Notes: a model not told the origin generated them from the sequence alone. 64,000 nucleotides of DNA from an uncultured Candidatus Saccharibacteria bacterium (GCA_964446535.1 CAYUOR010000003.1:14871-78870), one strand, 5' to 3'. Numbered from the stretch's first letter, positions 7,639 through 62,324 are shown. Numbers and translations: made by a program.

Positions 7639-7905
7639 ATGAAATCTATCGGCGATAGTCTAGAAAAACGTGATTTTAAAAAGATTTTTAAGCATCCACG
7701 ACTGAAAATGCTTGATGAATTTCATCGTCGCATCAACGCAGAGCGTTTGGCAGAAGGTATGAGAACACTCCCTATGCGGGCTATCGGTGTCAAAACCGCC
7801 CACCTTTCTCTTGAGGATATGGCATACCTTCTAAAAAGGTGTTCACAGAGTTCAAATTTCTCCAAATGTTTTTTCGGCAGTTTGAAAGTAAAAAATGACA
7901 AATAA
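7639..7905 (+). CDS. Hypothetical small ORF (88 aa), weak
   Basis: ORF only. A TATAAT at 7623-7628 lies just upstream. It overlaps the def-fmt start by 11 nt and may be spurious. Confidence 0.2.
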   Translation: MKSIGDSLEKRDFKKIFKHPRLKMLDEFHRRINAERLAEGMRTLPMRAIGVKTAHLSLEDMAYLLKRCSQSSNFSKCFFGSLKVKNDK

Positions 7906-9199
7906 AAATAAGGAAAGCCTGCCTGCGCAGGCAGGTAAAATTCTAGACAAAGACGCGGCTGTTTTAAGAAAAGTTGCCAAAGAAATCCCGCCAAAGGAAA
8001 TTGGTCTCAAGAAAACCAAAGATATTATTGAACGCATGAGAAGAGCTCTTTACGGTGAAGAAGACGGTGTCGCGATAGCGGCGCCGCAAATCGGTGAGAG
8101 TTTGCGTGTGTTTATGGTGCGTGGTGATGTACTTCTCTTCGCCAAAGGTAAAAAGGTCCAGTCTAAAGAAAAACCTGATGATCTCGTTTTTATAAATCCG
8201 GAAATTATACATACTTCAAGAAAGAAGAAGCGAGTTGAAGAGGGTTGCCTTTCTGTCCGATGGCTTTATGGCAAAGTTCTAAGAAGTGAAAAAATGACTA
8301 TCGGCGCCTATAACGAAAAGGGTGTCTGGATTGAGCGTGGTGCCTCGGGTCTGTTAGCACAAATCTTTCAGCACGAAATAGACCACCTAAACGGAATCCT
8401 CTTTACCGACAAGGCAGAGGACCTGCGAGACATACCTCCGCCGAAAGTTTTGAAATTTGCATACTTCGGTAGCTCCGAATTTTCGCGCTTTGTCCTGGAA
8501 GAACTTGAAGAGATGGGCTACTCGCCCACTCTAAATATCACCTCCAGCAAAGAGCCGTTGCCGATAGAAAAACTTAAAGAGCTTCAGGCAGATATTTTTA
8601 TCGTTGCTTCGTTCGGCAAAATTCTCCCGAAAGAGATTATCGAGATACCGAAATTCGGAACCCTAAACGTTCACCCGTCGCTTCTGCCGAAACTCCGCGG
8701 AGCCTCCCCCATACAAGGAACAATTCTTTCCGAGAACGAGCCTGGGGTAACGATAATCAAGATGGACGAACACACGGATCACGGCCCGATTATCACGCGA
8801 GTAAAAGTTGAGATTAGTCCCTGGCCGGACCATTACGCCACTGTGGAAGAAAAGCTCGGGCGAGCGGGCGGTAGAGTCCTGGGACTTGTTCTGCCGAAGT
8901 GGATCGGCGGAGAGATTGAAGCTGCGGCCCAGGAGGATGAGAATGCAACCTTTACAAAATTAATAAAAAAAGAAGATGGCCACTTGAATCTATCCGACGA
9001 CCCGAAAGTGAATCTCAGAAAAGTGCTTGCTTACAGCAGTTGGCCTGGCGCATATATTTACTATAAAAATAAGTTCGGTAAAGAAATACGAGTGAATATA
9101 AAAGACGCAGAGATTAAGGACGGAAAGTTTGTTCCCACGCGCGTCGTGCCAGCCGGTAAAAAAGAAATGAGTTGGCAGGACTTCCTCCGTGGTAACTAA
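7895..9199 (+). CDS. def-fmt: Fused peptide deformylase / methionyl-tRNA formyltransferase (Def-Fmt single polypeptide)
   Basis: The N-terminal part, about 175 aa, carries Def motifs: GVAIAAPQIG, EGCLSV and HEIDHLNG. The C-terminal part, about 250 aa, carries Fmt motifs: FGKILPKEIIEIPKFGTLNVHPSLLPKLRGASPIQ, MDEHTDHGPII and a C-terminal WPGAY domain. It is one continuous 434-aa ORF. Confidence 0.85.
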   Translation: MTNKNKESLPAQAGKILDKDAAVLRKVAKEIPPKEIGLKKTKDIIERMRRALYGEEDGVAIAAPQIGESLRVFMVRGDVLLFAKGKKVQSKEKPDDLVFINPEIIHTSRKKKRVEEGCLSVRWLYGKVLRSEKMTIGAYNEKGVWIERGASGLLAQIFQHEIDHLNGILFTDKAEDLRDIPPPKVLKFAYFGSSEFSRFVLEELEEMGYSPTLNITSSKEPLPIEKLKELQADIFIVASFGKILPKEIIEIPKFGTLNVHPSLLPKLRGASPIQGTILSENEPGVTIIKMDEHTDHGPIITRVKVEISPWPDHYATVEEKLGRAGGRVLGLVLPKWIGGEIEAAAQEDENATFTKLIKKEDGHLNLSDDPKVNLRKVLAYSSWPGAYIYYKNKFGKEIRVNIKDAEIKDGKFVPTRVVPAGKKEMSWQDFLRGN

Positions 9200-11563: not shown

Positions 11564-11796
11564 ATTATTTTTAGGTTACTAGTACCTATCTATTATATCC
11601 CGGCTACAAACCTGCCTAGGTAATACGGCCAGATGAAGATGGCGAGTAGCCCCTTACCAAAACTTAAAGAAAGAAAGCCAATGGTAAAGAGCCAGCCCAT
11701 AATCCAGAGGCCAAGCGACATTGAATGATTTTCTACTTTTATTTTCTGCATATAAAAATTTTAGCAAAAATGAAAAGATTCTGCTATTATTTTCGC

Positions 11797-11856
11797 ATTC
11801 CGCGACCAGCCTCGCGTCGGCGAGCTCCGCGAGTCGAGGCGGGTAGCTCAGTTGGT
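11797..11856 (+). repeat. Split partial copy of the tRNA-Asn 5' end (ATTCCGCGA ... TAGCTCAGTTGGT) separated by a 38-nt GC-rich palindromic spacer
   Basis: The 9-mer at 11797-11805 and the 13-mer at 11844-11856 are identical to 12091-12099 and 12100-12112 of the intact tRNA-Asn. The spacer contains GCCTCG...CGAGGC inverted repeats. Confidence 0.6.
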
Positions 11857-11859
11857 TGT

Positions 11860-12102
11860 ATGGCTCACACTTACATCTTATTGAGTGAAGTTGCGAATAA
11901 AACCTATGTCGGCAGTACTACTGACCTGAAAAGGCGCGTTGCCGAACATAATTCAGGAAAATCTACCTTCACGAAAAGGTATGCACCCTGGAAATTGGTA
12001 TATAGTGAACAGTTCGATAATATAAGTGAAGCTCGTCGGCGAGAGAAGTACTTTAAGTCTTCCGCCGGCAGGGCAAAGATTAAAGACTTTATTCCGCGAT
12101 AG
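11860..12102 (+). CDS. GIY-YIG nuclease family protein (UPF0213/YhbQ-like, 80 aa)
   Basis: MAHTYILLSEVANKTYVGSTTDLKRRVAEHN...EARRREKYFK is a GIY-YIG motif with a catalytic Arg/Glu. The track ORF starts at 11725, but homology begins at Met 11860. Its stop codon lies 8 nt inside the tRNA-Asn. Confidence 0.8.
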   Translation: MAHTYILLSEVANKTYVGSTTDLKRRVAEHNSGKSTFTKRYAPWKLVYSEQFDNISEARRREKYFKSSAGRAKIKDFIPR

Positions 12103-19652: not shown

Positions 19653-19666
19653 GCGGGTTTTCTTTT
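19637..19666 (+). terminator. Rho-independent terminator (ACCCGCTC AGAAAT GAGCGGGT + TTTCTTTT)
   Basis: 8-bp stem overlapping the stop codon, followed by a T-run. Confidence 0.55.
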
Positions 19667-21449
19667 AACCGAAAGTGAAGGCAAAAAATGAAGCGCCGCT
19701 CCCTCGAATACGAAGTTCAAGAGAGTGCTCGCTGGAATTGTTGTTTTTAATAAGTTTGTAAAGTCGACTCTCTTTTATTGTAACTATTCCGTTTTTGACA
19801 TCGGCACCTGCCTCGGTCGTGACAAGTTTTCCGTCCTGCCAGACTTCTACTTCTATCGGCGCGGTAGCGTTGGCTACGATATAGACTTCCTTGGCGTGAT
19901 AGCGGTAGAGAATTTTGGCCTCGCCAAGAGTCTGGGCCGACTCCGGTCCTATGTTCCAAGTTCCGCCGAGGTATAAAATGTTTGGAAAAGGCGTAATAGG
20001 AAGAGTAAATTTTTGTTCGCCGGACCGGCCGCTAGTGCCGTTTCCAAGAAACTCATTCCTAAAAAAACCAAAATAAGTTTCGGGACTTCTAGCGGTAGTC
20101 ACCTGTTTGGGGATACTCTCTGCGACCAGGGTTCCGCCCATATCAAACGCGGCCCGCTCGCCAAGGACTTTGGCGCGTTCTTCAAGAAGTATTTTAATGC
20201 GTTTTTCCGTTTCTTCGTAAGCACCCTCGCCGATGTGGTCATAGACAACATTGCCATAGATATCTATTAAATATTTTCTCGGCCAATATCGATTACCATA
20301 AGCGTTCCAGGTACCGTAATCGTTGTCCAGGACGACAGGATAAGTAATGCCGAATTCTGCCATGGCTTTCTCAACATTACTTTTATCGCGTTCAAAGGCG
20401 AATTCCGGCGTGTGAATACCGATGATGATAAAACCGTCATCCTTGTAGCGCTCATACCAGGACACAAGATAAGGGAAAGTGCGTTGGCAGTTGATACAGG
20501 AGTAGGTCATGATATCAAGGAGAATCACTTTTTCGCCGACGTAGTCAGAAATTTTTATTGGAAGATTGTCGGTGTTCACAAAGCCGGCGGGTCTGGCAAT
20601 TTCTTTGAACGGTACGCCCTTTGGCTTAGGTGCTGGCGCAACAGCCGATTTTTCTTCAGCCGTGTCAGACTTTTCTAGGACTTCTTCACTTGAGCTGGTT
20701 TCAACTTCCAGGCGCTCCTCTTCCCTATCAAGGCGCTCCAGAAGTCGATTTTCTATTTTTGTGACGTCAAAGAATCCACTATCAAGAATTGCGACCTCTA
20801 ACTTCTTCTCATAACCAAGAGCAATTAAAATACCTAGCGCAATAAAAATAACACCTATGAAGCGACGGAGCTTGCTTTTGGGGTCGGTGATTACGGCAAG
20901 GCGCGAAGCAAAGCGTTCACCTAAAAGAGCAATCAATAGAAGTGCCAAGGAAAGGCCGAGCGTATAGGCAAGAAGGTATGCTGAACCGAGAAGAAAACTT
21001 GCCGGTAAAACAGAGGCGAGAATTACAAAATAGGTCGGTGAGCAGGTTGAGAAAATCGGACCAAGAGAGGCGCCGATGATTACATCGCCCCAAAAAGTTT
21101 TCTTCTGATAGCCCTCGCCCAAGAGCTTGTTTGAGCCGATAGAGAGCCGATTTATGCCTGGGACCTTACTCCAAATATCCGGGAAAAGGAGTGTTAAACC
21201 AAAAAAGAAGATAATACCGCCCGCAAGATACGTCCAAAATTCCGGCGGGACCATGATAAACGCTGTAGATGCCTTGAGGAGATAGGTGAAAACAATTATC
21301 GAGAGCGCAAGCGAGCCCACGACGATATATGGGGTCGCGCGGCTTCGACCCGAGGCAGACGAACCAAGAACTACCGGCAAAAGCGGTAATATGCAAGGCG
21401 CCAAAACTGTTAGAATTCCGGCAAGGAATGAGATTACCAGTAATGTCAT
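19665..21449 (-). CDS. DipZ-like fusion: CcdA/DsbD transmembrane thiol-disulfide transporter + thioredoxin-like (TlpA/ResA) domain
   Basis: The N-terminus is a multi-TM domain with LAPCILPLLP. The central domain carries a CxxC (SCINCQ) redoxin motif. 594 aa. Confidence 0.75.
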   Translation of the reverse strand: MTLLVISFLAGILTVLAPCILPLLPVVLGSSASGRSRATPYIVVGSLALSIIVFTYLLKASTAFIMVPPEFWTYLAGGIIFFFGLTLLFPDIWSKVPGINRLSIGSNKLLGEGYQKKTFWGDVIIGASLGPIFSTCSPTYFVILASVLPASFLLGSAYLLAYTLGLSLALLLIALLGERFASRLAVITDPKSKLRRFIGVIFIALGILIALGYEKKLEVAILDSGFFDVTKIENRLLERLDREEERLEVETSSSEEVLEKSDTAEEKSAVAPAPKPKGVPFKEIARPAGFVNTDNLPIKISDYVGEKVILLDIMTYSCINCQRTFPYLVSWYERYKDDGFIIIGIHTPEFAFERDKSNVEKAMAEFGITYPVVLDNDYGTWNAYGNRYWPRKYLIDIYGNVVYDHIGEGAYEETEKRIKILLEERAKVLGERAAFDMGGTLVAESIPKQVTTARSPETYFGFFRNEFLGNGTSGRSGEQKFTLPITPFPNILYLGGTWNIGPESAQTLGEAKILYRYHAKEVYIVANATAPIEVEVWQDGKLVTTEAGADVKNGIVTIKESRLYKLIKNNNSSEHSLELRIRGSGASFFAFTFG

Positions 21450-21941
21450 CTATTTTAACTTCGACACGATATCAGTCAGATTTGGCGAACCTTGCCATTT
21501 GGCGATTTGGTTTCCCGAAGCATCAACTTGAACAAGTGTGTGCTGGGTAGTAACGCCATATTTTTGCTTAAGAGATGTAGAGTTGTCGTAATCAACCTTG
21601 AGAATCGTTAGGTCACCAGGAAGATTTTTTAAGTTTGAATTAAGGTTTGATTCCAGGGCACGGCATGTCGGGCACCAAGCGGCGTGGAAGAAAAGGACAA
21701 CCTTGCCATCCTCTGCTTTAGCAAGTTTTTCCGGGCTGTAAGTCTCATAAGAACCCTTCTCCATCATTGCCTCGTTCTCAATCATTTTCTCGTCACCCTC
21801 CACCATTTCTTCTTTCTCCATAATCTCCCCCTCCTTTTCCATCATCGCCTCTTTTTCGGCAGATTTTCCGGTGGCGAAGTAAATTCCAAGCCCGGCAAGG
21901 ACCAAAATGATAATAAGAATCAGAATTGGTTTGTTGTTCAT
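21450..21941 (-). CDS. Membrane-anchored thioredoxin family protein
   Basis: WCPTC active site, N-terminal TM and an acidic linker. Confidence 0.8.
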   Translation of the reverse strand: MNNKPILILIIILVLAGLGIYFATGKSAEKEAMMEKEGEIMEKEEMVEGDEKMIENEAMMEKGSYETYSPEKLAKAEDGKVVLFFHAAWCPTCRALESNLNSNLKNLPGDLTILKVDYDNSTSLKQKYGVTTQHTLVQVDASGNQIAKWQGSPNLTDIVSKLK

Positions 21942-23136: not shown

Positions 23137-23706
23137 CTAGCGGGCTACGCAAATTGTTTCCGCATTCGGAAGAGACTCTTCGTTTGCGGCCTCTGGTGCG
23201 CAAACCTGTACTCTACCGTTACCCAAAAGCTCTACAGTATATGGAAGACCTGATGGTACTGGCTCCATCGGTAAGATCGAAATGTAGGTAGGGACTAGAC
23301 AACCCAGGTTTCCGGATATATTACCAAGGTCGGGAGTACCCATGGCTGAAGAAATCGGCGTACTGGAAGCTGGTATTCCATCACAATCATATTGAGTGGC
23401 AGATATTGTAAAGGAACCTTCGAAAACACCTTTGTTGTCCGCCAGGCGTTGGCCGATAGCGTTTAAAATAGCGTTAACATTTGATGAGCGTTGTGTATTT
23501 CTTGCTTGGGCAAACTGTTTTGCCGGATTAATGGCGACTATCACGATGCCGGCAAGAACGGCAATAATGCCAATAACCACAAGAATTTCTATCAGGGTGA
23601 AACCTTTGGTTTGTTTGTAATTAATATTACTGTTTTGCCTGACGCGCATTAGAGGTAGATCGGTTACTACACAAGCAAGATTATCACGCAAATTCGTGTT
23701 TCGCAA
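23137..23706 (-). CDS. Prepilin-type N-terminal cleavage/methylation domain protein (pilin-like); probable start at Met 23649
   Basis: KGFTLIEILVVIGIIAVLAGIV is a class III signal with a hydrophobic helix and Glu5. It has C-terminal Cys pairs. Confidence 0.7.
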   Translation of the reverse strand: MRNTNLRDNLACVVTDLPLMRVRQNSNINYKQTKGFTLIEILVVIGIIAVLAGIVIVAINPAKQFAQARNTQRSSNVNAILNAIGQRLADNKGVFEGSFTISATQYDCDGIPASSTPISSAMGTPDLGNISGNLGCLVPTYISILPMEPVPSGLPYTVELLGNGRVQVCAPEAANEESLPNAETICVAR

Positions 23707-23719
23707 TTAGCGGCCGAGG

Positions 23720-25738
23720 TTAAATCTCTTCCCAAGAACCTATAGAAATATTGGACGGAGAAAGAAGCGGAGGTGGAGGGGGTTGAGGAGGAGTAGCGCT
23801 CGCTGAAGGGCCGGCGGCTGGACAAGAAAGTTGGGCTATTGAGTTAAATATATCGGAGAGATAGGAAGAACTTGGTGCGATAAAGAAATAATCTCCATCA
23901 GTATTTTCACTCGCATAACCAGCAGAATTATTGCCGAAGTTATCGTTTGAGCCAGACTGGTGTGCATTGCCGAAATGTGAGTGACTCGGTAGGCCAGAAG
24001 CCGAAACGGAACCAGAAGCAAGGGCAGACAGAAGCTCTTGGCCATAAAAACCAGATGGGTCTGAACCATAAAAAACCGTAAAAATTTCTACCCCACTAAG
24101 TTTGGCGGCGTCGGCAGCATCAAGTGCTGCTTCCGCCGCATTCGGCGGCTCGTCTGGATCGCCGTCAGAAACCAAAAGAAGAACCTTCCTCTTTCCAGAA
24201 AGATGTCTAGGACCGTTAAGCTCAGCCGCCCCAACACTTATGGCATCGGCAAGGTTAGAGCCAACATTACTTGCCGATCCGGTGGCTTCCTCTATGGCAT
24301 CATAAAGATCACCGTCATTGTCGTCTCCGGGATTATCCTCGCCATAAATACGGGAAAGCCAGCCTATGGGCGACCGGCTGTGATAAACACGAACCGACAC
24401 CCAATCCAGAGCATAATCCCGACCGGCACATGAGGGGGCGCCGGTACAGTTCATTGTCAATCTGACTCTAAAATTATTGTTGGAAAAATCGTTAGCTACC
24501 CAAGATCGCCCCCAGAGATCGGAGCTGCTGCCGACCGTATCCGTATGGTAGGAATGTGTTGATTCGTCATTAGAAATTTTTGAAACCCAATTGGCTCCGC
24601 CGTTCCAAGAAATTTCAACAGTGATACTGTTTTCTCCCTCTACTGCCGTGTCGTGATTTTCTTCATCCGCCGGTAGCCACCAATCAAGCCGCACCTCTAT
24701 GCCGGTTATGGTTGTGTTTACAGGAATGGTTATGCCGTAGTTGTAGTAAATGTGTCTGTCACCGGCGCCATTTCTGTTCTCGGCAAAACTTATGCCGTCG
24801 TTGAGGGCGTTGAGAGGATAAAGTTCCAGGCCATCACCATCACCACCAGTTGTTGCGTCTTCTGCTGTTGGGCTAAGGAAACCGGTGCTACTTAAAACTC
24901 CGGGTACAATTTCCGCCTCAATACCGCCAGGTAAATTATCTCCAAACCTACCGATGCCAACTTGTGGAAATGGGTCAGTTGTGGAGGCAAATAAATTAAG
25001 TATGCCCTTGGCTGCAGCTTCCTCGTCAGATCGCGCCGAAGAAGAAAAATTAGATGTTCTATCAAGCATCAAAACAAGATCAGCGCAGTCTGGCGGCTCG
25101 CCAACAGAAATGGGTGCAGAGCAAGAACCAGAACCTCCAGGACCGCTGACAGAGCCCTCATAAGTGGTGCTTCTATCGGGGAAAACAAGTTCCTGCCCGC
25201 TAGTGTTTGGTTGGGGAGAAATAACAGAACCATTTGCGCGATCAGTAATAAAAAATGAGTCAGCATTAGTGGAGGTTGCCCAAGAAAGCCAGGCCGAACC
25301 GCCATCGTCTATATTGTCTGGGCTAATTGAAAGAGCACAGGCGGCCGGTGGTGGCAGGGGTGGTAAAGACGGATCAATAACGGTTGCGTTAGTCACAACA
25401 CTTGAGAAAGAGCCGTTAACTTCTGCCCAGGTTCTTATTTCTCTATTAAAGTCTCCACTCGGAAGAGAAACACTTTCAATGTGGCAAGTGTTTGAACCGA
25501 GAGTAATGACGTCATTGGATGGATTGTAGTAGTAATCCTCTCGAAGGTTTAGAAGTGCTACATTGACACAAGCTTCAGCGAGAGAGAGGGCTTGGCGCTT
25601 GAACTCATTCTGGAGAGCATTTGAGCGTGCGTAAAAAGCCGATGCGCCGGCCGTTACGGTAATAGCAAGAATCACGGCCGAGATTGCAAGAACCGATATA
25701 AGGGCGACGAAGCCGTGATCTTGGTTTTTTAAATTCAT
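23720..25738 (-). CDS. Large pilus-associated protein with pseudopilin-like N-terminal helix and von Willebrand factor A domain
   Basis: N-terminus HGFVALISVLAISAVILAI. VWA-like block VLLLVSDGDPDEPP...GVEIFTVFYGSDPSG. Pro-rich C-terminus. 672 aa. Confidence 0.65.
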   Translation of the reverse strand: MNLKNQDHGFVALISVLAISAVILAITVTAGASAFYARSNALQNEFKRQALSLAEACVNVALLNLREDYYYNPSNDVITLGSNTCHIESVSLPSGDFNREIRTWAEVNGSFSSVVTNATVIDPSLPPLPPPAACALSISPDNIDDGGSAWLSWATSTNADSFFITDRANGSVISPQPNTSGQELVFPDRSTTYEGSVSGPGGSGSCSAPISVGEPPDCADLVLMLDRTSNFSSSARSDEEAAAKGILNLFASTTDPFPQVGIGRFGDNLPGGIEAEIVPGVLSSTGFLSPTAEDATTGGDGDGLELYPLNALNDGISFAENRNGAGDRHIYYNYGITIPVNTTITGIEVRLDWWLPADEENHDTAVEGENSITVEISWNGGANWVSKISNDESTHSYHTDTVGSSSDLWGRSWVANDFSNNNFRVRLTMNCTGAPSCAGRDYALDWVSVRVYHSRSPIGWLSRIYGEDNPGDDNDGDLYDAIEEATGSASNVGSNLADAISVGAAELNGPRHLSGKRKVLLLVSDGDPDEPPNAAEAALDAADAAKLSGVEIFTVFYGSDPSGFYGQELLSALASGSVSASGLPSHSHFGNAHQSGSNDNFGNNSAGYASENTDGDYFFIAPSSSYLSDIFNSIAQLSCPAAGPSASATPPQPPPPPLLSPSNISIGSWEEI

Positions 25739-26223
25739 CTGCGTAGATATTTAATAGTCGAGAAATCTTGAGATAGCGATATGCCGTCTGGAGTTCTGGC
25801 GTTTGCGGTAAAGCTTGCTTCGAGACTTTCCGGATTAATGCCGACGCCCGATTCAACAGAGTGCACAAAACTTAAGTTACTTATCCAGACGTTGGTGTTG
25901 TTGAGAATCTCTGGCGTAGTTGTGCCACGAGCAATGCGGAGATTATTATTATTTAGATCAATAATAATCTCTGTACCATCAAAAGTTATTACCGAAAGCG
26001 AGCTTGAAGCACTTACGGGCCAAATAACTTCACTTGTATTTGAAAATACCCAATCAATCTTGGCGGATAAAAATGTGCCTTCTTCTAGAATCATGGCCTT
26101 GGTTTGATTGCGGCTTGAAGTCTGGCTGACACTGTAGACGGAAGTGAGTATCCCCGCCATGATAACTGAAAAGAGGGCGAGATAAATAAGTGTTTCTATC
26201 AGTGTAAAGCCTTTCTTTTTCAT
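25735..26223 (-). CDS. Minor pilin (prepilin-type N-terminus)
   Basis: MKKKGFTLIETLIYLALFSVIMAG. Confidence 0.7.
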   Translation of the reverse strand: MKKKGFTLIETLIYLALFSVIMAGILTSVYSVSQTSSRNQTKAMILEEGTFLSAKIDWVFSNTSEVIWPVSASSSLSVITFDGTEIIIDLNNNNLRIARGTTTPEILNNTNVWISNLSFVHSVESGVGINPESLEASFTANARTPDGISLSQDFSTIKYLRR

Positions 26224-27749
26224 GAACTTGTTATCACGGTTATATAACCAGAACCAGCCGTATCAGACGAGCCAACATAAATAAAGTTACCCTCACAATC
26301 GATGCTTCTGCCTACACTACCTGATGGCATGGGAATTGAGGCGGAAGAAATTATGTTTGAAGGATTGGTGGTGTTAAGAATTTTTAAACTTTCGTTAGTC
26401 AAAATAAAAGATAAATAATCTCTGACCAAAAGATCGTTTATGCTATCGTCTGCAGCATATTCCCCTATTGGCGTATCATTAACAGCTGTTGGATTTGAAA
26501 CGTCTATGATATGAAATTCCGGGTTTGATGAAAACACGGTTTCGGTTCTTCCCAAATACAGAGTATCTCCGACAAGAGCCAGGCTCTTTCCATTTCCCGC
26601 GTTATCATTGGCGTGGAAACCGCCGACTCTTGACGGATTCCTGGGGTCAATAATATTTATTATCGTTAGCTGCTCCTGCGGGTTGTTAGAACTGTCAGTT
26701 GGGTGGGCGAGATAGGCGTGGCCGTTACGAACCGCCAAAGCATTTACCGGCTGGAGTGAACTTTGTCCTTGAGTTGGCCAGCCGCCCACCCAGAACGGTG
26801 AGAGGGGGGTGTGGACATCTATGATATGAAACTCTGGTCCGCTTCCAGTCTTTGAAAGCCCGAGATAAATATATCCATCCTTATAAAAAATATTTTTACC
26901 TATAGCCTGACCGCCCGAGCCAGTCACTCTGGCCCCAGATGAGGTTGCAAGCTTCAGACTGACTATAGCTGGATTCCAGTTGCTAGTGGGTGAGCTGACA
27001 TCCACCACCTGAAGCTGGGCACAACTTGGTCCCACCGAGCAGGAGTTAAAATTTGCATCGTGTGCGTTCGCGACATACGCGTAATCCCCGGCGACCTTGA
27101 CGGCGTTGAGGCCGTCTCTTGTACTACCGGCATTGTCTGTACCGCCCAAATATATAGGCTTCGTTGATTGATTTGAAATATCAAAAACAAAAAGAGTTTT
27201 GTCGATATTTACCGCAGTTTCACCGACCGTTACATAAAGCTTCCCCCTATAAGCATCGAGATCGGTAACTGGATATGTGCCAGAAAGACCGGCGGGCAGA
27301 AGATCAGAGGCGCGCAAAGTATATGTACGAGCTACGGGGCTAGACCAATTACCTTCTGGAGAAGAATTGCAGGTAGAGGCGCCAACGGAACTTGAAAAAT
27401 CTGTTACGATAGTTTTTAATTCAACACTTTGTCTCAGGCCGCGCTCGCTTTGCCAACTGATTTCTACCACTACCTCTTTTGTTAAAAAGTCTGGGCGAAG
27501 ATTTACAGAAATTCTCTCGGTGTAGAAGCCGTTGTGGGTCGTGGTGGAATTTACCAAATTAAAATCTTTCCGCGCCAGCGCCTGTTGTCTTTCTATAAGA
27601 GCTTGTGCTCGTTTAAGTGCTTCACTCGCGGACTCGCTACTGGCAAGCGACATCTGATTGCCAAAAGAAATAAGTATCACAGATGAGAGAACTATGACCA
27701 TTATGGTCATGGCGATAATCACTTCCAGGGTTGAAAATCCTTTATTCAT
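26220..27749 (-). CDS. Pilin-like protein with large beta-propeller-type C-terminal domain; true start at Met 27749 (MNKGFSTLEVII)
   Basis: Class III signal GFSTLEVIIAMTIMVIV. It is followed by about 450 aa rich in repeated G..YVAN/LVIVD-like segments. The start abuts the stop of the upstream gene. Confidence 0.6.
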   Translation of the reverse strand: MNKGFSTLEVIIAMTIMVIVLSSVILISFGNQMSLASSESASEALKRAQALIERQQALARKDFNLVNSTTTHNGFYTERISVNLRPDFLTKEVVVEISWQSERGLRQSVELKTIVTDFSSSVGASTCNSSPEGNWSSPVARTYTLRASDLLPAGLSGTYPVTDLDAYRGKLYVTVGETAVNIDKTLFVFDISNQSTKPIYLGGTDNAGSTRDGLNAVKVAGDYAYVANAHDANFNSCSVGPSCAQLQVVDVSSPTSNWNPAIVSLKLATSSGARVTGSGGQAIGKNIFYKDGYIYLGLSKTGSGPEFHIIDVHTPLSPFWVGGWPTQGQSSLQPVNALAVRNGHAYLAHPTDSSNNPQEQLTIINIIDPRNPSRVGGFHANDNAGNGKSLALVGDTLYLGRTETVFSSNPEFHIIDVSNPTAVNDTPIGEYAADDSINDLLVRDYLSFILTNESLKILNTTNPSNIISSASIPMPSGSVGRSIDCEGNFIYVGSSDTAGSGYITVITSS

Positions 27750-27750
27750 T

Positions 27751-28230
27751 TTATTTTGTCCAGAAAATCTGTCCTTCGGAGCCAATAGTTGTGGTTGAAA
27801 CGGTGCCAGAATCGGAAATAATAATATCCCCCGCTGTAAACACTTCGCCCGAGAGTGGCTGGAAAACGATTTCAGCCAGTCCTGTGACGAAAGCGCCACC
27901 AGTCTTTTCAACCACCTCGTTGTATTCGTCATCGGGATTATAAGAACTGCCCTGAAAAATTATGAATCGGTCACTCTCTATCTTTACGCCATGTGGTAGA
28001 CCGTCCGTGCAGAGTGGTCCGAAACAAGTATTGCTTATTGCTAAGGCACGAGCTCGGTGTAGGGTGCTTATAAGGAGGTCTCGATCTGAGCGAAAAATTT
28101 GTTTTTTGAAACTATCTACCCCCATAACCATAGAAAACCCGCCGATGAGAGCCACCAAGCCGAGCACTACGAGAATTTCCATTAGGGTCATTCCTCGGTC
28201 GAGTCTCTGTTTTCGGAGAACGTGCGACAT
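27751..28230 (-). CDS. Pseudopilin / minor pilin
   Basis: RGMTLMEILVVLGLVALIGG. Confidence 0.65.
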   Translation of the reverse strand: MSHVLRKQRLDRGMTLMEILVVLGLVALIGGFSMVMGVDSFKKQIFRSDRDLLISTLHRARALAISNTCFGPLCTDGLPHGVKIESDRFIIFQGSSYNPDDEYNEVVEKTGGAFVTGLAEIVFQPLSGEVFTAGDIIISDSGTVSTTTIGSEGQIFWTK

Positions 28231-28239
28231 TTGTCTGGA

Positions 28240-29355
28240 TTATTTTTGAAGTCCTTGGGTAATGCTATAGATGGGGGTAATTATGGAAATGGCGACAAAG
28301 CCAACGAGTAACCCCATGATAACCATGAGCACCGGTTCAATCATGTTGGATAAATTTTTTGTTGAATCCTCCACCTCGCTCTCATACATATCCGAGAGAT
28401 AGTTCAGAGTCTCGGAAAGGTTGCCGCTTCGTTCGCCGACAGAAATAATTTGTGAGAGAACATCAGGAAAAAGTTTTCTATAATTTTTCATGTGAGAAGA
28501 AATTTTTTCTCCTCTGTTGGCAACTTCCGCAAGTTTTTCAAGTTCGGATCGGTAAATCAAATTATTAGTTGAGCGCGAGGTTATCGGCAGGGCTTCGGAA
28601 AGAGTCATTCCACCATTAAGAAGAAGGCCTAGAGTGCGGCTAATGTTGGCTAGATGATAATTTTGAATCATCTGGCCGATTAGCGGGGCGCGCATAGAAA
28701 GTCTGTCAAACCAGTAGTGGAATCTTTCGCTTCTTTTAAAAACGAATCTAAGCACTAGAACGAAAACAATGATTCCCAACAATAACCAAAGTCCGTAGGC
28801 GCCAAGAAAGTTGCTCGTGGCAATAAGAATCTTTGTGGTTACAGGTAATTCGACGTTAAGACTAAGGAAAATTGGCATTATCTTCGGAAAAATAAAGACA
28901 ATAAGGAGGCTTGTAATACCTATGGTGGCTAAGGTAATAAAAATCGGATATACCATTGCGCCAACCACCTTTCGCCTTAGAAGTTGCCGCTTCTTTAACT
29001 CTTCAGCCAGATAGGAAAGGTTCTCGCTGAGAGCTCCAGTCTGTTCGCCAACAGCAATAATACTTATGGCAAAATCACCAAAAGCGTTTTTGAAATTTTT
29101 TAGACTATCGGAGAGCGAACGACCGCTTGAAACATCGGCTATCGTCCTTTCAAGGAGTCTGTTATAACTTTTGGAAATTGTTTGCTCCCGAATCATGCTC
29201 AAAGCCTCAATAAGTGAAACTCCGGCATTAATAAGAAATGAAAGACGCTTTGCAAAAAAGGCTTGTTCACCTATAGAAAACTTGCCGAACCTGAAATTTG
29301 TCAAAGAACTTTTAAAAGATTTGCCGCCACTACTACTTACTTTTTTTGAAAACAT
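28240..29355 (-). CDS. pilC: Type II secretion system F-family platform protein (PilC/GspF-like)
   Basis: 371 aa with two GspF repeats and three TM segments. Confidence 0.88.
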   Translation of the reverse strand: MFSKKVSSSGGKSFKSSLTNFRFGKFSIGEQAFFAKRLSFLINAGVSLIEALSMIREQTISKSYNRLLERTIADVSSGRSLSDSLKNFKNAFGDFAISIIAVGEQTGALSENLSYLAEELKKRQLLRRKVVGAMVYPIFITLATIGITSLLIVFIFPKIMPIFLSLNVELPVTTKILIATSNFLGAYGLWLLLGIIVFVLVLRFVFKRSERFHYWFDRLSMRAPLIGQMIQNYHLANISRTLGLLLNGGMTLSEALPITSRSTNNLIYRSELEKLAEVANRGEKISSHMKNYRKLFPDVLSQIISVGERSGNLSETLNYLSDMYESEVEDSTKNLSNMIEPVLMVIMGLLVGFVAISIITPIYSITQGLQK

Positions 29356-29356
29356 C

Positions 29357-30574
29357 TTACTCGTGAATTACGCGCAGGACTTCTTCTAGGGTTGTCTCTC
29401 CCCTTTTGGTGCGATTTATACCGTCTTCAAGCATGGTGGTCATACCATTTTTAACAGCGATTTTTTTAAGTTCGGAGGCCGACGCCTTGCGAAGGATGGC
29501 TTCTCTGATTTCATCATCTGCTACCAGAACCTCGTTGATACAAATTCTACCTGAGTAACCTGAATCATTACATTTCTTGCAACCCTTACCATGAAAAATG
29601 GTCTCGCCCCCCTCGAGATCTGAGAGAAGGGTGTTATTTTTCAGACCCTCTTTCATGGCTGTGGTTAGAGCCACCGGCTCTTTGCAGTGTTCACATATTT
29701 TCCTTACCAGCCTTTGGCCAATTATGATATTCACGGTCGAGGCAACAAGATAGGTTTCAATACCCATATCTAGCAATCTCGGTAGCGTCGTGGCGGCATC
29801 GTTTGTGTGAAGGGTAGAGAGTAAGAGGTGTCCGGTGAGTGCCGTATTTACCGCAATGTTAGCTGTTTCAGAATCGCGGATTTCTCCAACCATAATGATA
29901 TTAGGGTCCTGGCGAAGAATGGAACGCAGACCGTTGGCAAAGGTGAGGCCGGTACGATGATTTACCTGAATTTGTTCTACGTCGGGAATAGCATACTCTA
30001 TCGGATCTTCTATGGTAATTATGGAAACTTCCGGTGAATTTAACATTTTTATCATTGTGTAAAGAGTTGTAGTTTTACCGGAACCGGTCGGACCAGTAGA
30101 GAGAATCATGCCATTCGGCTTTCTCAGGGCTGTAATTATTTTCTTTCTATCTCCCTCAGAGAAACCCAGGCTTTTAAGATCAAAGTTCTCCGATTTGTCG
30201 GCCAGGAGTCGTAGAACCGCGTTTTCACCGTGATACGTTGGTACAATAGAAACCCTGATATCGATGTGGCGCCCATCGGAAAGGTCTTGGCGTAAGCGCC
30301 CGTCTTGAGTCGCGTTATGTTCGTCTGTGCGAAGACGCGAAAGAACTTTAATACGAGAAATCACTTCTGGGTGAATCGTTTTGGGGAAATTATAAACATC
30401 CTGTAGTACGCCGTCTATGCGAAACCGGACTCGAACTTTATCAACCAGTGGGTCAATGTGAATGTCCGAGGCATGAACTTCATGAGCCTTTTCTATAAGG
30501 GAATTTACCAGACCGATAATCGAGAGATTGGTGCCATTGGCAAGTTCCTTCTCTACCGTGTTGGGGTTCGACAT
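29357..30574 (-). CDS. GspE/PilB-family secretion ATPase (short form, 405 aa)
   Basis: Walker A GPTGSGKTT, Asp/His boxes, and a C-terminal tetracysteine CEHCK...CKKC. Confidence 0.88.
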   Translation of the reverse strand: MSNPNTVEKELANGTNLSIIGLVNSLIEKAHEVHASDIHIDPLVDKVRVRFRIDGVLQDVYNFPKTIHPEVISRIKVLSRLRTDEHNATQDGRLRQDLSDGRHIDIRVSIVPTYHGENAVLRLLADKSENFDLKSLGFSEGDRKKIITALRKPNGMILSTGPTGSGKTTTLYTMIKMLNSPEVSIITIEDPIEYAIPDVEQIQVNHRTGLTFANGLRSILRQDPNIIMVGEIRDSETANIAVNTALTGHLLLSTLHTNDAATTLPRLLDMGIETYLVASTVNIIIGQRLVRKICEHCKEPVALTTAMKEGLKNNTLLSDLEGGETIFHGKGCKKCNDSGYSGRICINEVLVADDEIREAILRKASASELKKIAVKNGMTTMLEDGINRTKRGETTLEEVLRVIHE

Positions 30575-30685
30575 AATTCAACTGCTGTGACAACGAACTA
30601 TACTACAAATTATAGAAATATCAAAATAAAAATCGCCGCAAATCAATACGGCAATTTTTATTCAGCGAGAGCGGAAAAGCTGTCG

Positions 30686-33823: not shown

Positions 33824-34591
33824 ATGAAAAAACTCGAGACTTCTTCATATAAAGGGGTTAGGGATTTCTACCCGGAGGATATGAAGGTGCAGAATTACAT
33901 TTTCGATACCTGGCGTAAGGTGGCAGAAAAATTCGGCTACGTTGAATACGGCGCCTCGATCCTTGAGCCAACAGAGCTCTACACGGAAAAATCGGGCGCA
34001 GAGATTATAAACGAGCAAACCTTTACCTTTACTGACAGGGGTGAGCGTTCTGTTACCTTGCGACCGGAGATGACACCGACACTTGCACGCATGGTCGCCG
34101 CTAGGCGTAGGAACTTGAAATTTCCTCTTCGGTGGTACGCCATACCAAATCTTTTCCGCTACGAACGCCCGCAGCGAGGTAGAAAGCGAGAACATTGGCA
34201 ACTGAATTGTGATCTCTTGGGCATAGAAGGTGTTGAGGGCGATAAGGAAATAATTTCTCTCGCATACAGTGTTATGAAAGAATTTGGTGCCAAAGATTCT
34301 GATTTTGAGATTAGAATAAACAATGCCGATATAGAGAAATTTCGAGATATCGGGGCGAATTTTGTCTACGACGCTTCCCTGGCAAGAGGGCAAACATATT
34401 ATACTGGGGTAGTTTTTGAAATATTCGATACCGATAAATCAAACCCTAGGGCTCTGGCGGGTGGTGGGCGCTACGACAACCTTCTGGAGCTTTTTGACGT
34501 GGCGCCAGTGCCGGCGATTGGCTTCGGTATGGGTGATATCACTTTGCGCGACTTTCTTGAAACTCATGGACTGCCCATATGCGCAAGGTAG
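33824..34591 (+). CDS. Histidyl-tRNA synthetase-like class II core lacking an anticodon-binding domain (255 aa)
   Basis: HisRS motifs are present: RPEMTPTLARM, FRYERPQRGRKREHWQLNCDLLG and GGGRYDNL. The ORF stops right after the motif-3 region, where the next gene starts. Confidence 0.75.
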   Translation: MKKLETSSYKGVRDFYPEDMKVQNYIFDTWRKVAEKFGYVEYGASILEPTELYTEKSGAEIINEQTFTFTDRGERSVTLRPEMTPTLARMVAARRRNLKFPLRWYAIPNLFRYERPQRGRKREHWQLNCDLLGIEGVEGDKEIISLAYSVMKEFGAKDSDFEIRINNADIEKFRDIGANFVYDASLARGQTYYTGVVFEIFDTDKSNPRALAGGGRYDNLLELFDVAPVPAIGFGMGDITLRDFLETHGLPICAR

Positions 34592-35154
34592 TTTTTGATA
34601 TAGAAACTAAAAATTTTTTTTCTGACGTTGGGGGTAACGACCCAGCGCTTTTGGATTTGGCTCTGGTTGCCATTCACGACTCGGAAACTAATTCTTACCA
34701 GTCGTTTCTCGAGGAAGAGCTAGTCAGGCTCTGGCCAATAATTGAGCGGGCCGATGTTCTCATAGGCTTTAACTCGGACCATTTTGATATACCTCTTCTC
34801 AATAAATATTATTCGGGGGATTTAACAAAAATAAAAAGCCTGGACTTACTCAAAGAGATAAAAAATACTTACGGCAGAAGAATGCGTTTGGATCAGCTCG
34901 CCGAGGGCACTCTTGGTAAAAATAAGTCGGGGGGTGGTGCTGATGCTATAAACTGGTGGCGAGCTGGGGATATAGAGCGAGTTCGCTCATACTGTATTGA
35001 CGATGTTAGGCTTACCAAGGAGCTTTACGAATATGCGTTAAAAAACGGAAAACTTATTTTTAAAGAAGGTGGAGTATTGAACGAAATAAAGCTTGATGTT
35101 TCAAGTTGGGAGAGGCCAAATGGGCACAAACTTACCTTTTCGCTACCGTTTTAA
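34579..35154 (+). CDS. DEDDh-family 3'-5' exonuclease (DnaQ/RNase T-like)
   Basis: Exo motifs FDIETKN, SDHFDIPLL and YCIDDV. Confidence 0.7.
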   Translation: MRKVVFDIETKNFFSDVGGNDPALLDLALVAIHDSETNSYQSFLEEELVRLWPIIERADVLIGFNSDHFDIPLLNKYYSGDLTKIKSLDLLKEIKNTYGRRMRLDQLAEGTLGKNKSGGGADAINWWRAGDIERVRSYCIDDVRLTKELYEYALKNGKLIFKEGGVLNEIKLDVSSWERPNGHKLTFSLPF

Positions 35155-35193: not shown

Positions 35194-35907
35194 ATGGATC
35201 CAAATCAAAATCCTGACTCGAACCCCTTAAACAGAAACTTGGTGCCTTTAGCCATAGTAATTGCTGGCGCGCTTGTTGCCCTAGCAATTTACTTTGGTGG
35301 AAGCGACTCATCTTTGCGTCTGCCGACAGGAAACGCCGAGAACACAACCACAAAGGCCGAGATCGCCCCAATTACCGAAAGAGATCACATCCTAGGCAGT
35401 CTTAACGCCGAACTTACCGTAGTTGAGTATTCTGACACCGAATGTCCATACTGTAAGGTCTTTCATAAAACAATGCACCAAGTCGTTGAAGACTACCAAG
35501 GCAGAGTAGCTTGGGTTTATAGACACTTCCCGATAGTACAACTGCACGCCAAGGCGCCAAAAGAAGCAGAAGCAACAGAATGTGCGGCTGAACTTGGCGG
35601 TAATCAAGCTTTTTGGAGATATATAGACAGGCTCTTTGAGCTTACGAATTCCAATGATTCACTCGACCTCGCAGAGTTGCCAAAGATTGCCGTCGCCATA
35701 GGACTTAACCAAGCCGCCTTTAATGAATGTCTCTCAAGCGGAAGGCACTCTGAATTCGTCGCGAAAAGTGTCGAGGCAGCTGTTAAGGCCGGAGCCCGCG
35801 GCACCCCGCACTCTGTTATTGTAACTAAGGGTGGGAAACAGCTGGTTATAAACGGAGCTGAGCCGATAGAATCAGTAAAGGCAAAGATTGATTCTCTCCT
35901 TAAGTAA
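35194..35907 (+). CDS. DsbA-family thiol:disulfide oxidoreductase, membrane anchored
   Basis: CPYC active site, N-terminal TM, thioredoxin fold. Confidence 0.8.
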   Translation: MDPNQNPDSNPLNRNLVPLAIVIAGALVALAIYFGGSDSSLRLPTGNAENTTTKAEIAPITERDHILGSLNAELTVVEYSDTECPYCKVFHKTMHQVVEDYQGRVAWVYRHFPIVQLHAKAPKEAEATECAAELGGNQAFWRYIDRLFELTNSNDSLDLAELPKIAVAIGLNQAAFNECLSSGRHSEFVAKSVEAAVKAGARGTPHSVIVTKGGKQLVINGAEPIESVKAKIDSLLK

Positions 35908-49563: not shown

Positions 49564-49569
49564 AAACGG

Positions 49570-57609: not shown

Positions 57610-58251
57610 TTACTGCACAGAAATTTGGCCCGTTGTTAACACGGTAACGGAGGAGGTCGCGGTTGTACTAGGACTTCTAAAAATAATTCTCGCGCCAACC
57701 ATGTTTGGATTGGTAAACTCCGAACCGCCTGAGTTGAAGAATTTAATTTGCGCTTCGGTGTTTGGTCGATTAAAGGTTATGTCTATTCTTCTGGGAGTGC
57801 CCGGGGGACCGCAATCTAAGCTTACCGGATTTATAATCATACAAACTTCCTGTATATAAACACCGCGCAAAATATTTACCCGTTCAATACATTCGTTTGC
57901 TCCGCCTGTGACACAGCTCCAATCCCCATCATAAACATCATCCCCGTCTCTGTCGGCGAAATAAAGATAGACGGTGTTTGAGCCGCCACCCAAAAGACTA
58001 AAAGTAAGTCCGTATGAAGCAGAAAACTCGCCAGAGCCCGTAGAAAATTCCCGGACACCAGAGCCATACGCCTGTGCTTGAAAAATCCTTAAACTGACAT
58101 CGTCCGCAAGATTCCTCAGAACCAGTCTGTCATTGTATGTTGACTGACCTATAAGCAGGGTGCCGAGAATGATGGTTGCGATAGTAATGGCCACAATAAA
58201 CTCGGGGAGAGTAAAACCTCTAACTATTTTAGAGCGGAAAGACATTGGCAA
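57610..58251 (-). CDS. Minor pilin (prepilin-type N-terminus)
   Basis: RGFTLPEFIVAITIATIILG. Confidence 0.65.
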   Translation of the reverse strand: MPMSFRSKIVRGFTLPEFIVAITIATIILGTLLIGQSTYNDRLVLRNLADDVSLRIFQAQAYGSGVREFSTGSGEFSASYGLTFSLLGGGSNTVYLYFADRDGDDVYDGDWSCVTGGANECIERVNILRGVYIQEVCMIINPVSLDCGPPGTPRRIDITFNRPNTEAQIKFFNSGGSEFTNPNMVGARIIFRSPSTTATSSVTVLTTGQISVQ

Positions 58252-59002
58252 AGTTTAAGTGGAAGAATAATGCTATCCAGGCGCCCAAGACGATTGCGGG
58301 ACCAAACGGCACTTCGCTTTTCATTGTAAAACTTTTGCCGTTCTTTATAAAGCGAAGCTTGGTGACAATAAGAAGTACCAGCGCCGCCAGGGCGCCAAGC
58401 CAGAAAGCGAAAATTATCGCCGAAAATCCCTTGGCGGCGCCAAGAAGGAATCCAATCGAGAGTCCGAGCTTCGCGTCTCCGAAACCCATGGCGCGACCCT
58501 TGGAGAAAAGCCAGATTGAAGCAAAAAAGGCGAAAATAACGGGTCCCGCGAGCCAGTCCCAGAGCGGGTACTCAACAAGAAAGAGCGGCACGAGCAGACT
58601 AAGGCCGATAGAGGTATAAACGAGACCATCGGGAATAATCTTATGCCGAGCATCATAGATCGTGATAACAATGTAGATAGAAAAAACAGCCACCAAAACA
58701 AGATAATTGAAAAAGGATACAAGATCAGTTGGATCAATAATATAAAAAAGTGATGCGAAAATAAGGCCGGTCCAGGTTTCTACTATCGGGTACTGCCACG
58801 AGATTGGACTACGACAGGCAGAACACTTACCCCCGAGGATAATAAAGCTTAAAACGGGAATAAGCTCTGTCCAGCCAAGAGTTTTACCACAGTGAGGGCA
58901 AGCGGAGCGTCCACCGAAGTGTCTTGAGTCCCAGCGAAGCCCCACAACATTTAGAAAACTTCCGACAATAGTGCCTAAAACAAAAAGGATGACTAGAGTC
59001 AT
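58229..59002 (-). CDS. pilD: Prepilin peptidase (A24 family, PilD)
   Basis: Zn-binding CPHCGKT...CSACRSP, multi-TM, and a conserved catalytic Asp context (GFGDAKL). Confidence 0.9.
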   Translation of the reverse strand: MTLVILFVLGTIVGSFLNVVGLRWDSRHFGGRSACPHCGKTLGWTELIPVLSFIILGGKCSACRSPISWQYPIVETWTGLIFASLFYIIDPTDLVSFFNYLVLVAVFSIYIVITIYDARHKIIPDGLVYTSIGLSLLVPLFLVEYPLWDWLAGPVIFAFFASIWLFSKGRAMGFGDAKLGLSIGFLLGAAKGFSAIIFAFWLGALAALVLLIVTKLRFIKNGKSFTMKSEVPFGPAIVLGAWIALFFHLNFANVFPL

Positions 59003-61256: not shown

Positions 61257-62324
61257 TTAAATCATGCGTTCCAAGGCCTTTCTGTTGGTGGCAAACTGCA
61301 TGGCGTTATCAACCGTTACTTCGCCAGAACGCACAAGCTCGGCGAGAGAACGGTTGAGATTTATCATCCCCTCTTCGGAACTGGTTTCTATAACCGAGTT
61401 GATTTCGTGCGTCCTTTTTTCTCGGATAAGGTTTGCCACGGCGTTGTTGTTGATCAGGAGCTCAAAAGCGGGAATAAGCCCGCCGGAAATTCTCGGCAAT
61501 AGCCGCTGAGAAAAGATACCGAGAAGCGAACTTGCAAGCTGCAGTCTAATCTGCGTTTGCTGGTCCGACGGGAACGAGTCGATGATGCGGTCAACGGTCT
61601 GTCCGGCGGCATTGGTGTGGAGAGTTGAGAGGACGAGGTGCCCGGTCTCGGCCGCGGTGACTGCGGTTGATATGGTTTCGAGGTCACGCATTTCTCCGAT
61701 CATAAGTATGTCGGCATCCTGGCGAAAAACACCTTGAAGCGCAGTGCGGAAGTCTGGCGTATCTATCTTTACCTCGCGCTGATTGATGATGGACTTTTTC
61801 GGCTCAAAAATGTATTCGATCGGATCTTCAATAGTGACAATGTGCTCCAGGCGCTCCTGGTTTATCGTTTCTATCATCGTGGCAAGCGTTGTAGACTTGC
61901 CGACGCCGACCGGTCCAACGACGAGGAAAAAGCCCTGCTGACGCTTGGCGAAGTTCTCAAGTATCGGTGGTAGGCGCAATTCTTCAAAAGTTTTAATGCG
62001 TGAAGGGATAAGACGCATCGCGATACTGATTTTCCCGAGAGAGAGATAGGCGTTGCAGCGAAAGCGTTTTGAATCGGCGTGGGTGTAGGCGAAGTTTGTT
62101 TCCTTATTTTTTTCAAATTCTTCTTTGTTTCGTTCTGAAAATAGAAGGTGAATAAACCCTTCGAGATCATCGCGCTTCAGGGGTGCCATCTTCGCCAGAG
62201 GTAGAAGGAAGTTTGATACACGGATAGTCGGGAGCTTGCCCTCGGAGAGATGCAGATCCGAAGCGTCTTCTTTAACAACAATGTCTATAAGTTCGCTTAA
62301 AAGTTTATCGTGGGTGCCTGTCAT
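61257..62324 (-). CDS. pilT: Type IV pilus retraction ATPase PilT
   Basis: Walker A GPVGVGKST, and AVANLIREKRTHEI (an AIRNLIRE-like PilT signature), 355 aa. Confidence 0.9.
   Translation of the reverse strand: MTGTHDKLLSELIDIVVKEDASDLHLSEGKLPTIRVSNFLLPLAKMAPLKRDDLEGFIHLLFSERNKEEFEKNKETNFAYTHADSKRFRCNAYLSLGKISIAMRLIPSRIKTFEELRLPPILENFAKRQQGFFLVVGPVGVGKSTTLATMIETINQERLEHIVTIEDPIEYIFEPKKSIINQREVKIDTPDFRTALQGVFRQDADILMIGEMRDLETISTAVTAAETGHLVLSTLHTNAAGQTVDRIIDSFPSDQQTQIRLQLASSLLGIFSQRLLPRISGGLIPAFELLINNNAVANLIREKRTHEINSVIETSSEEGMINLNRSLAELVRSGEVTVDNAMQFATNRKALERMI

Follow-up and report, generated by a model that had tools for sequence, protein, structure and literature searches.

A second type IV filament operon with propeller- and VWA-bearing pilins in an uncultured Saccharibacteria bacterium and its relatives among Patescibacteria

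We analyzed a 64,000-nucleotide stretch of DNA from an uncultured Candidatus Saccharibacteria bacterium (GCA_964446535.1, CAYUOR010000003.1:14871-78870; hereafter, the window), in which a type IV pilus-like operon occupies positions 23137-30574 of the minus strand. The operon consists of seven co-directional, tightly packed open reading frames (ORFs), here called g1 to g7 in their order from 30574 to 23137. Matches to Pfam and NCBIfam profiles identify their products as a short GspE/PilB-type ATPase, a PilC/GspF platform protein, and five prepilins. None of PilD, PilT, PilMNO, or a secretin is encoded inside the seven-gene operon. An earlier reading of this DNA, made from the sequence alone (the sequence-only reading), had described a second pilus operon of short PilB-like ATPase, PilC, and pilins without a pilD, pilT, or secretin of its own, and this observation is confirmed. 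The same reading called the seven co-directional genes overlapping; all seven ORFs were recovered where it placed them, but true overlaps occur only at the g4/g5 and g5/g6 junctions (4 bp each), the remaining junctions being gaps of 1-70 nt.

The first gene, g1 (29357..30574, minus strand, as are all operon features below; 405 amino acids [aa]), encodes an extension ATPase of the GspE/PilB family (T2SSE, E=6.5e-123). It aligned to residues 177-562 of PilB, so that the N-terminal ~170 aa are missing, and it retains a Walker A motif (GPTGSGKTT) and a CxxC...CxxC zinc motif (Cys 294/297/332/335). The PilB of the housekeeping pilus in the same window (62719-63999) lacks this tetracysteine motif, having only Cys313 and Cys360 in its visible part. 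The platform protein g2 (28240..29355, 371 aa) contains two T2SSF repeats (2.4e-54). The best NCBIfam scores were those of GspE for g1 (508 bits, 2e-152, followed by PilB at 485 bits, 2.7e-145) and of GspF for g2 (284 bits), and all of them fell below the equivalog cut-offs.

Three of the five prepilins are small. Minor pilin g3 (27751..28230, 159 aa; leader ...DRG↓MTLME, where the arrow follows Gly-1) occupies the GspH/FimU position and matched N_methyl (0.0014) and, weakly, GspH (2.9e-4); Glu5 is present in 66 of 73 g3 orthologues. Minor pilin g5 (25735..26223, 162 aa; leader MKKKG↓FTLIE) matched N_methyl at 7.6e-8, with weak NCBIfam matches to ComGE, ComGF, GspI, and GspJ. When family profiles of g3 and g5 were compared with the PDB, the matches were confined to the alpha1-N helix of type IV pilins, and a GspH, GspI, or GspJ identity is therefore not established for the small pilins. 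The last gene, g7 (23137..23649, 170 aa from ATG), encodes a candidate major pilin with an N_methyl match (7.4e-8), N-terminal matches to GspG, GspH, PilA, and ComGC, and the prepilin motif G↓FTLIE within the leader ...KQTKG↓FTLIEILVVIGIIAVLAG. Its start is most likely the ATG at 23649 and not the TTG at 23706, where a longer ORF begins, and the sizes of orthologues agree with this choice. The four cysteines of g7 fit a wider pattern, in that each of the five operon pilins has either none or an even count of them. Genes for a 594-aa DsbD/CcdA-thioredoxin fusion, a 163-aa secreted thioredoxin, and a DsbA-like protein are found close to the operon (19665-21941 and 35194-35907), and their products may serve disulfide formation in these pilins. 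Cysteine parity and the nearby thiol-disulfide enzymes are together consistent with extracellular, disulfide-stabilized pilins.

The fourth gene, g4 (26220..27749, 509 aa; leader MNKG↓FSTLE), encodes a modular minor pilin with a match to the LVIVD repeat (E=2e-6), which we take to be IPR013211. An AlphaFold2 model computed from a 64-sequence family alignment had a mean predicted local distance difference test score (pLDDT) of 91.9 and a predicted template modeling score (pTM) of 0.88. It comprises an alpha1 helix (residues 2-61), a four-strand pilin sheet (69-116), and a propeller (139-507) with 28 strands, which we counted as seven blades. Foldseek searches with this model returned seven-bladed WD40-like propellers as top matches (E~1e-8), and no PilY1 structure was among the top 50. 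Cys127 and Cys485 are invariant across the family alignment, a pairing that likewise fits display outside the cell. At E<=1e-30 the family included 379 clusters (50% identity), and nearly all of the 150 best were full-length pilin-plus-propeller proteins. Altogether, the LVIVD match, the confident model, the Foldseek matches, and the G↓FSTLE signal bear out the proposal that g4 is a pilin-anchored beta-propeller.

The sixth gene, g6 (23720-25738, 672 aa), encodes a composite protein in which the Pfam VWA domain scored 26.2 bits against a cut-off of 23.8. An exact-sequence search of a contig index gave no match to g6, although an identical protein (P0001) comes from an NCBI contig of 86.8 kb. 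Residues 1-127 (25358..25738; pLDDT ~90) form a PilX/GspK-like pilin module with the leader MNLKNQDHG↓FVALI, a helix at residues 8-67 followed by a four-strand sheet, and a weak GspK match (0.0057). Gly-1 is present and Glu5 is absent (GFVALI), an absence that extends to all g6 orthologues examined (Glu5 in 0/70) and is also true of GspK and PilX. The module is shared with orthologues of 123-175 aa, in which the N-terminal helix begins G↓(F/Y)(I/V)AL. Residues 128-217 (25088..25357) are mostly beta strands modeled at low confidence (pLDDT 45-66) and are likely Ig-like, given that orthologues have SpaA_2 prealbumin-like domains at the same position. The VWA domain follows in two parts, with its N-terminal third (beta1-alpha1-beta2) at residues 218-282 (24893..25087), where the metal ion-dependent adhesion site (MIDAS) starts as LDRTSNFS, and the rest at residues 455-645 (23804..24376; GSN...VLLLVSDGDP...EIFTVFYG...YFFIAP). 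Between them, residues 283-454 (24377..24892; pLDDT ~90) form a jelly-roll beta-sandwich of ~170 aa, identified by Foldseek. Residues 646-672 and the stop codon (23720..23803) make up a poly-proline linker and a conserved terminal strand, NISIGSWEEI (strand at 664-671, pLDDT ~80). A similar SWEE-like strand also ends most of the plain 123-175-aa orthologues. Since the large g6 proteins and most of the small ones end in the same strand, the added modules have been inserted into a small pilin just ahead of its last strand, and this strand probably pairs with the pilin sheet.

A Foldseek search of the whole g6 model returned jelly-roll matches only and no VWA, an effect of the insert being modeled more confidently than the rest. 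With the insert removed, a VWA profile matched only VWA proteins in the PDB, and the Rossmann-like alpha/beta domain most resembles the VWA domains found in Streptococcus sanguinis PilB and in the tip adhesins of sortase and type V pili. The sequence-only reading had described g6 as a VWA protein with a pseudopilin-like helix; its VWA fold and pilin helix stand, but the canonical motif that the reading proposed to check (G↓F/M-x-x-x-E) is absent. The MIDAS reads DRTGSMS...GTN...SDG in most orthologues, versus DRTSNFS...GSN...SDG in this genome (Ser5 to Asn and Thr to Ser). The jelly-roll insert resembles carbohydrate-binding modules (CBMs) of families CBM4 and CBM22 as well as Eph ligand-binding domains and belongs to no Pfam family. 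Relative to its closest relatives (loci L004 and L005), g6 has a different variant of this insert (14-18% identity), versus 52-71% identity in all other regions, and hypervariability confined to the insert fits a ligand-specificity cassette. Domains of the same kind (~170 aa) recur, often in tandem or at the C terminus, in many unrelated secreted proteins (P0002-P0035), including proteins annotated as peptidase, chlorophyllase/lipase-like, CARDB, and VWA. From these sequences, the domain looks like an undescribed, mobile, CBM-like family.

A housekeeping pilus locus extends from 56035 to beyond 63999 and encodes PilB (truncated by the edge of the window), a response regulator, PilT, PilC, two PilA proteins, PilD, and four minor pilins, consistent with the sequence-only reading, which had placed pilD, pilT, and a full pilus locus at a distance from the operon. 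The prepilin peptidase/methyltransferase PilD (58229..59002, minus strand; A24_N_bact 4.7e-28, Peptidase_A24 1.3e-10) is the only prepilin peptidase seen in the window and lies ~28-35 kb from the operon, in agreement with the proposed reliance on a remote enzyme. Prepilin-type N-termini number 11 in the window (a motif scan found 10; g5 was missed by the pattern and has an N_methyl match), and PilD presumably processes all 11 in trans. PilT (61257..62324, minus strand), the sole retraction ATPase in the window, is 42% identical to g1 in the core only and could act on the operon filament in trans. A stand-alone response-regulator receiver protein (62331-62711) is encoded between the housekeeping PilB and PilT.

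Could the operon be a misassembly-duplicated fragment of this canonical locus, or a run of chance ORFs? We found nothing in favor of such an artifact and regard its chance as negligible. Paralogues are only 27-41% identical (41% for g1 and the housekeeping PilB, 27% for g2 and the housekeeping PilC), similarity between the pilins is limited to the N-terminal helices (54% identity between g7 and a housekeeping PilA over ~39 N-terminal residues), and the sole DNA similarity between the two loci is a 253-bp match at 64% identity. GC content is uniform and unremarkable, and the identical seven-gene order recurs in 54 independent genomes. We therefore reject an assembly duplicate and consider the operon distinct from the housekeeping pilus, as the sequence-only reading had it.

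We asked how widely the operon is conserved by scanning a genome collection with the g4 family, a design in which the presence of a propeller pilin at every locus is partly built in. Relatives of the propeller pilin were found in at least 98 species genomes, and 80 loci were retrieved, most of them labeled as Patescibacteria or as one of its candidate phyla (Kaiser-, Adler-, Doudna-, Wolfe-, Nomura-, Lipton-, Brenner-, Jorgensen-, Zambryskii-, Azam-, Lloyd-, and Veblenbacteria, Paceibacterota, and Minisyncoccia). Many loci are labeled Saccharibacteria and a few Gammaproteobacteria or Bacillota, and such database labels may be unreliable. All seven genes were present at 54 loci, and their order was identical in 54/54, confirming conservation in related genomes; PilT was inside none of these 54 operons, and no conserved eighth gene was found on either flank among the 80 loci. 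Prepilin motifs are kept in orthologues, with the g3, g4, g5, and g7 families mostly G↓F...E5. In g6, by comparison, a plain pilin of 123-175 aa is encoded at 57 of 73 loci, and an expanded protein of 650-1400 aa at 15 of 73. Expanded orthologues contained VWA domains in 10/10 tested and SpaA_2 stalk domains in several. The VWA expansion of g6 is thus lineage specific, and the sequence-only reading, which treated VWA and propeller as a defining pair, does not hold on this point, with a propeller in every locus examined and VWA in just 15/73.

GIY-YIG endonuclease ORFs or fusions lie inside the L003 operon, at the g3 position and between g6 and g7 (6354-7031 and 11635-11892), and one propeller pilin (P0108) has a GIY-YIG Pfam match, which suggests that homing-endonuclease-like elements invade the operon. 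In L055 (10025-15569) and L036 (7080-12047), g1, g2, g4, g5, g6, and g7 are among genes split into two or three ORFs, reflecting either pseudogenization or assembly frameshift errors; contig names of these metagenome-assembled genomes suggest long-read assembly. Near the upstream side of the operon, eight loci encode a giant surface protein on varying strands, exemplified by a protein of ~2800 aa with Ig-like and HYR repeats directly upstream in L001 (1-5110); the window holds no counterpart.

The operon is surrounded by core chromosomal genes, including those for RpoB/C, RpoD, DnaG, TypA, UvrB, and LigA. A terminator-like hairpin (30663-30624) ends the gene upstream of the operon, and directly after it, just upstream of g1, is a promoter-like site (TTGATA-16-TATAGT; 30597..30624, minus strand), found by a consensus scan that does not imply function. 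Elsewhere in the window, a single 434-aa ORF at 7895-9199 combines peptide deformylase and methionyl-tRNA formyltransferase domains (a Def-Fmt fusion). At 33824-35154, a histidyl-tRNA synthetase match is limited to a 255-aa ORF that overlaps the start of the next, 191-aa ORF, which reflects either a gene split in two or a frameshift. Five tRNA genes (Thr-CGT, Thr-GGT, Asp, and two Met-CAT on opposite strands) lie at 49568-51618 between release-factor and GatA-like genes.

Most Patescibacteria have not been grown in culture and presumably live attached to the cells of a host, and we know of no account of how members other than Saccharibacteria locate a host and stay on it. We propose that g1 to g7 encode a self-contained, minimal type IV filament machine that works beside the housekeeping pilus and makes an adhesive fiber for contact with a host or surface, a reading to which we assign a probability of roughly 60%. 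A dedicated adhesive or host-contact fiber was also the suggestion of the sequence-only reading; its separate second filament operon stands, and the adhesive function is plausible. PilD would cleave the prepilins after Gly-1, and the four minor pilins g3, g4, g5, and g6 would come together on the platform protein g2 as a priming or tip complex resembling GspH-I-J-K or FimU-PilV-PilW-PilX. Since the minor pilins of both loci in the window comprise three with Glu5 followed by one without it, we propose g3-g6 as this tip complex, with g6 as its cap. ATPase g1 would then polymerize g7 below the complex, making g7 the shaft. The tip would display the seven-bladed propeller of g4 in every lineage where the operon is found and, in the present lineage, would also show the VWA domain of g6 with its swappable, lectin-like jelly-roll cassette. 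Through glycan or protein ligands, such a fiber could fix these ultrasmall cells to a host or to a surface. By analogy, adhesion of this kind would be the most economical function; host binding by the Saccharibacteria strain TM7x requires PilX2 (propeller pilin), PilA2 (major pilin), and PilB2 (ATPase) of a second pilus (PMC11623550), and S. sanguinis PilB, a pilin with vWA, acts as an adhesin (PMC8179133).

Several points weigh against an adhesive fiber of this design. Assignment of pilins to H, I, J, and K positions rests on gene order and weak N-terminal matches, and the overall g6 model is of moderate quality (pLDDT 74.9, pTM 0.49). The partly degenerate MIDAS residues suggest that metal-dependent ligand binding may have been lost in this genome. 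The VWA module is missing from most orthologous operons and is therefore not essential to the core role of the system. Finally, the seven-gene composition is equally that of competence (ComG) operons.

This last point raises the alternative of a Com-like pseudopilus for DNA uptake in a bacterium poor in nucleotide synthesis, in which the tip modules would be used otherwise or would dock onto lysed cells. Like comGA-GG, the operon consists of a single ATPase gene, a single platform gene, and five pilin genes and is devoid of PilMNO, PilT, and a secretin; g1 shares its short length with ComGA, weak matches to ComGA, ComGB, ComGD, ComGE, and ComGF were obtained, and ComEC together with DNA uptake is regarded as a general trait of the phylum (PMC13293708). 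However, ComGA scored 255.7 (cut-off 300) and ComGB 166.2 (cut-off 240), both under their cut-offs and lower than GspE/PilB and GspF, and in comG the major pilin ComGC is third, directly after ComGB, whereas the candidate major pilin comes last here. The propeller, VWA, and CBM-like modules are of adhesin type, not DNA binding, and the second pilus of TM7x made no contribution to competence (PMC11623550). We therefore think a competence role rather unlikely.

The higher GspE and GspF scores would also fit a piston like that of the type II secretion system (T2SS), working without an outer membrane, in which a short pseudopilus would drive specific exoproteins, for example hydrolases or proteins of a matrix, across the wall. 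Weak GspG/H/I/J/K pilin matches in an H-I-J-K-G arrangement favor such a device, and a second pilus gene set of Clostridium perfringens is reported to be linked to matrix protein secretion (PMC11580942). However, all scores are under equivalog cut-offs, neither the operon nor the annotated genes of the window include GspC/L/M/D, no cargo gene is conserved next to the operon, and tip modules as bulky as 40-130 kDa are difficult to accommodate in a piston confined to the envelope, which makes this role distinctly improbable. We see a similarly slim chance that the operon makes a retractile pilus for motility or predation, with its tip a grappling hook and not a static adhesin, powered by the housekeeping PilT in trans. 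Although PilT is encoded in the same genome, and some relatives (L063) have genes for PilB and PilT at a distance of a few kb, the lack of PilT from every complete operon argues against retraction, as does twitching in TM7x, which belongs to the other pilus, whose locus encodes PilT (PMC11623550). DNA uptake, secretion, and retraction are each less consistent with bulky adhesin-type tip modules than adhesion is.

The operon is a compact, widely conserved candidate for host finding and attachment, with two experimental handles in the propeller pilin found at every locus examined and the hypervariable lectin-like cassette on the VWA cap pilin. If the proposed adhesive fiber is correct, the sequence of this cassette could predict host or substrate specificity from metagenomes. 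More speculatively, and in our view doubtfully, the operon may represent a Patescibacteria-wide class of minimal type IV filament in which the obligatory g4 serves host recognition in Parcubacteria-type episymbionts and the g6 cap is an evolvable platform for host range. VWA, SpaA-like stalk, and interchangeable lectin cassettes inserted in the cap would then retarget host range, as a pilus-borne equivalent of phage receptor-binding proteins.

Compared with known systems, the operon has the hallmarks of the type IV filament superfamily, namely, an extension ATPase, a platform protein, subunits with class III signals, and a prepilin peptidase encoded outside the operon. It is not a canonical type IVa pilus locus, as PilM/N/O(/P/Q) and a dedicated PilT are absent from the operon and no flanking gene is conserved across the 80 loci. 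The gene order is like that of GspH-I-J-K, which also includes a cap pilin without Glu5 and with a domain inserted in the pilin fold. In GspK the domain is inserted in the pilin sheet (PMC8179133), and the g6 modules likewise lie between the pilin module and its last strand; however, the GspK insert is an alpha-domain, not VWA, jelly-roll, or Ig, the operon lacks a secretin and GspC/L/M, and the matches are below cut-offs.

The closest functional parallel may be the second, thin pilus of TM7x, T4P-2 (Grossman et al., PMC11623550), with which we compared the operon by its published description only. Both are second pili of Saccharibacteria with their own PilB and PilC and no retraction ATPase, and both include one minor pilin with a seven-bladed beta-propeller among T2SS-pseudopilin-like minor pilins. 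However, T4P-2 has PilM2/N2/O2 and pilins in a separate locus, whereas a single seven-gene operon without PilMNO is found here. The TM7x propeller pilin PilX2 has RCC1 repeats and no predicted PilD signal, unlike g4 with its LVIVD repeats and G↓FSTLE leader, and no VWA pilin has been described for T4P-2. Two pili per cell with a host-binding propeller pilin in Saccharibacteria are already published (PMC11623550), as are modular pilins, which were cataloged in 2021 and include a pilin with IPR013211 in Falkowbacteria and pilins with vWA (PMC8179133). Our literature searches found no description of the seven-gene operon, an insertion-type cap pilin, or a VWA-with-jelly-roll cassette, and no account dedicated to LVIVD pilins in Parcubacteria.

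Modular pilins are exemplified by PilB (vWA) and PilC (lectin) of S. sanguinis (Raynaud et al. 2021, PMC8179133; PMC9934059), and g4 (pilin and propeller) and g6 (pilin with Ig-like, VWA, and jelly-roll modules) are built on the same principle. In S. sanguinis PilB, vWA is appended C-terminally via a short loop to a pilin with Glu5, whereas in g6 the modules precede the last strand of a Glu5-less pilin, are joined to it by a poly-proline linker, and include a VWA that hosts a jelly-roll. Moreover, two different modular pilins are combined here in one conserved operon.

The sequence-only reading had viewed VWA and propeller as the two halves of a split PilY1. Homology to PilY1 was rejected, since neither g4 nor g6 matched a PilY1 Pfam family at E<=0.1, with LVIVD and VWA the only matches, and the propeller is LVIVD/WD40-like. 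As a functional analogy, the comparison is instructive: in Pseudomonas and Myxococcus, the PilY1/PilC adhesin is combined with FimU-PilV-PilW-PilX, and in both systems four minor pilins, the fourth without Glu5, would present VWA and propeller. PilY1 is, however, a single nonpilin protein with its own type of propeller, whereas the modules here are on separate true pilins and VWA is optional. The g6 head is more reminiscent of the tip adhesins SpaC, RrgA, GBS104, PitA, and Mfa5, which also have VWA domains with inserted arms, and the SpaA_2 stalks of g6 orthologues recall their Ig- or prealbumin-like stalks. Those adhesins are anchored by sortase and isopeptide chemistry or by strand exchange, whereas in g6 a similar head is carried by a type IV pilin. 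The operon would thus represent a new pilus-tip design, in which adhesin heads of the sortase-pilus type are housed inside a type IV cap pilin and replace a separate PilY1.

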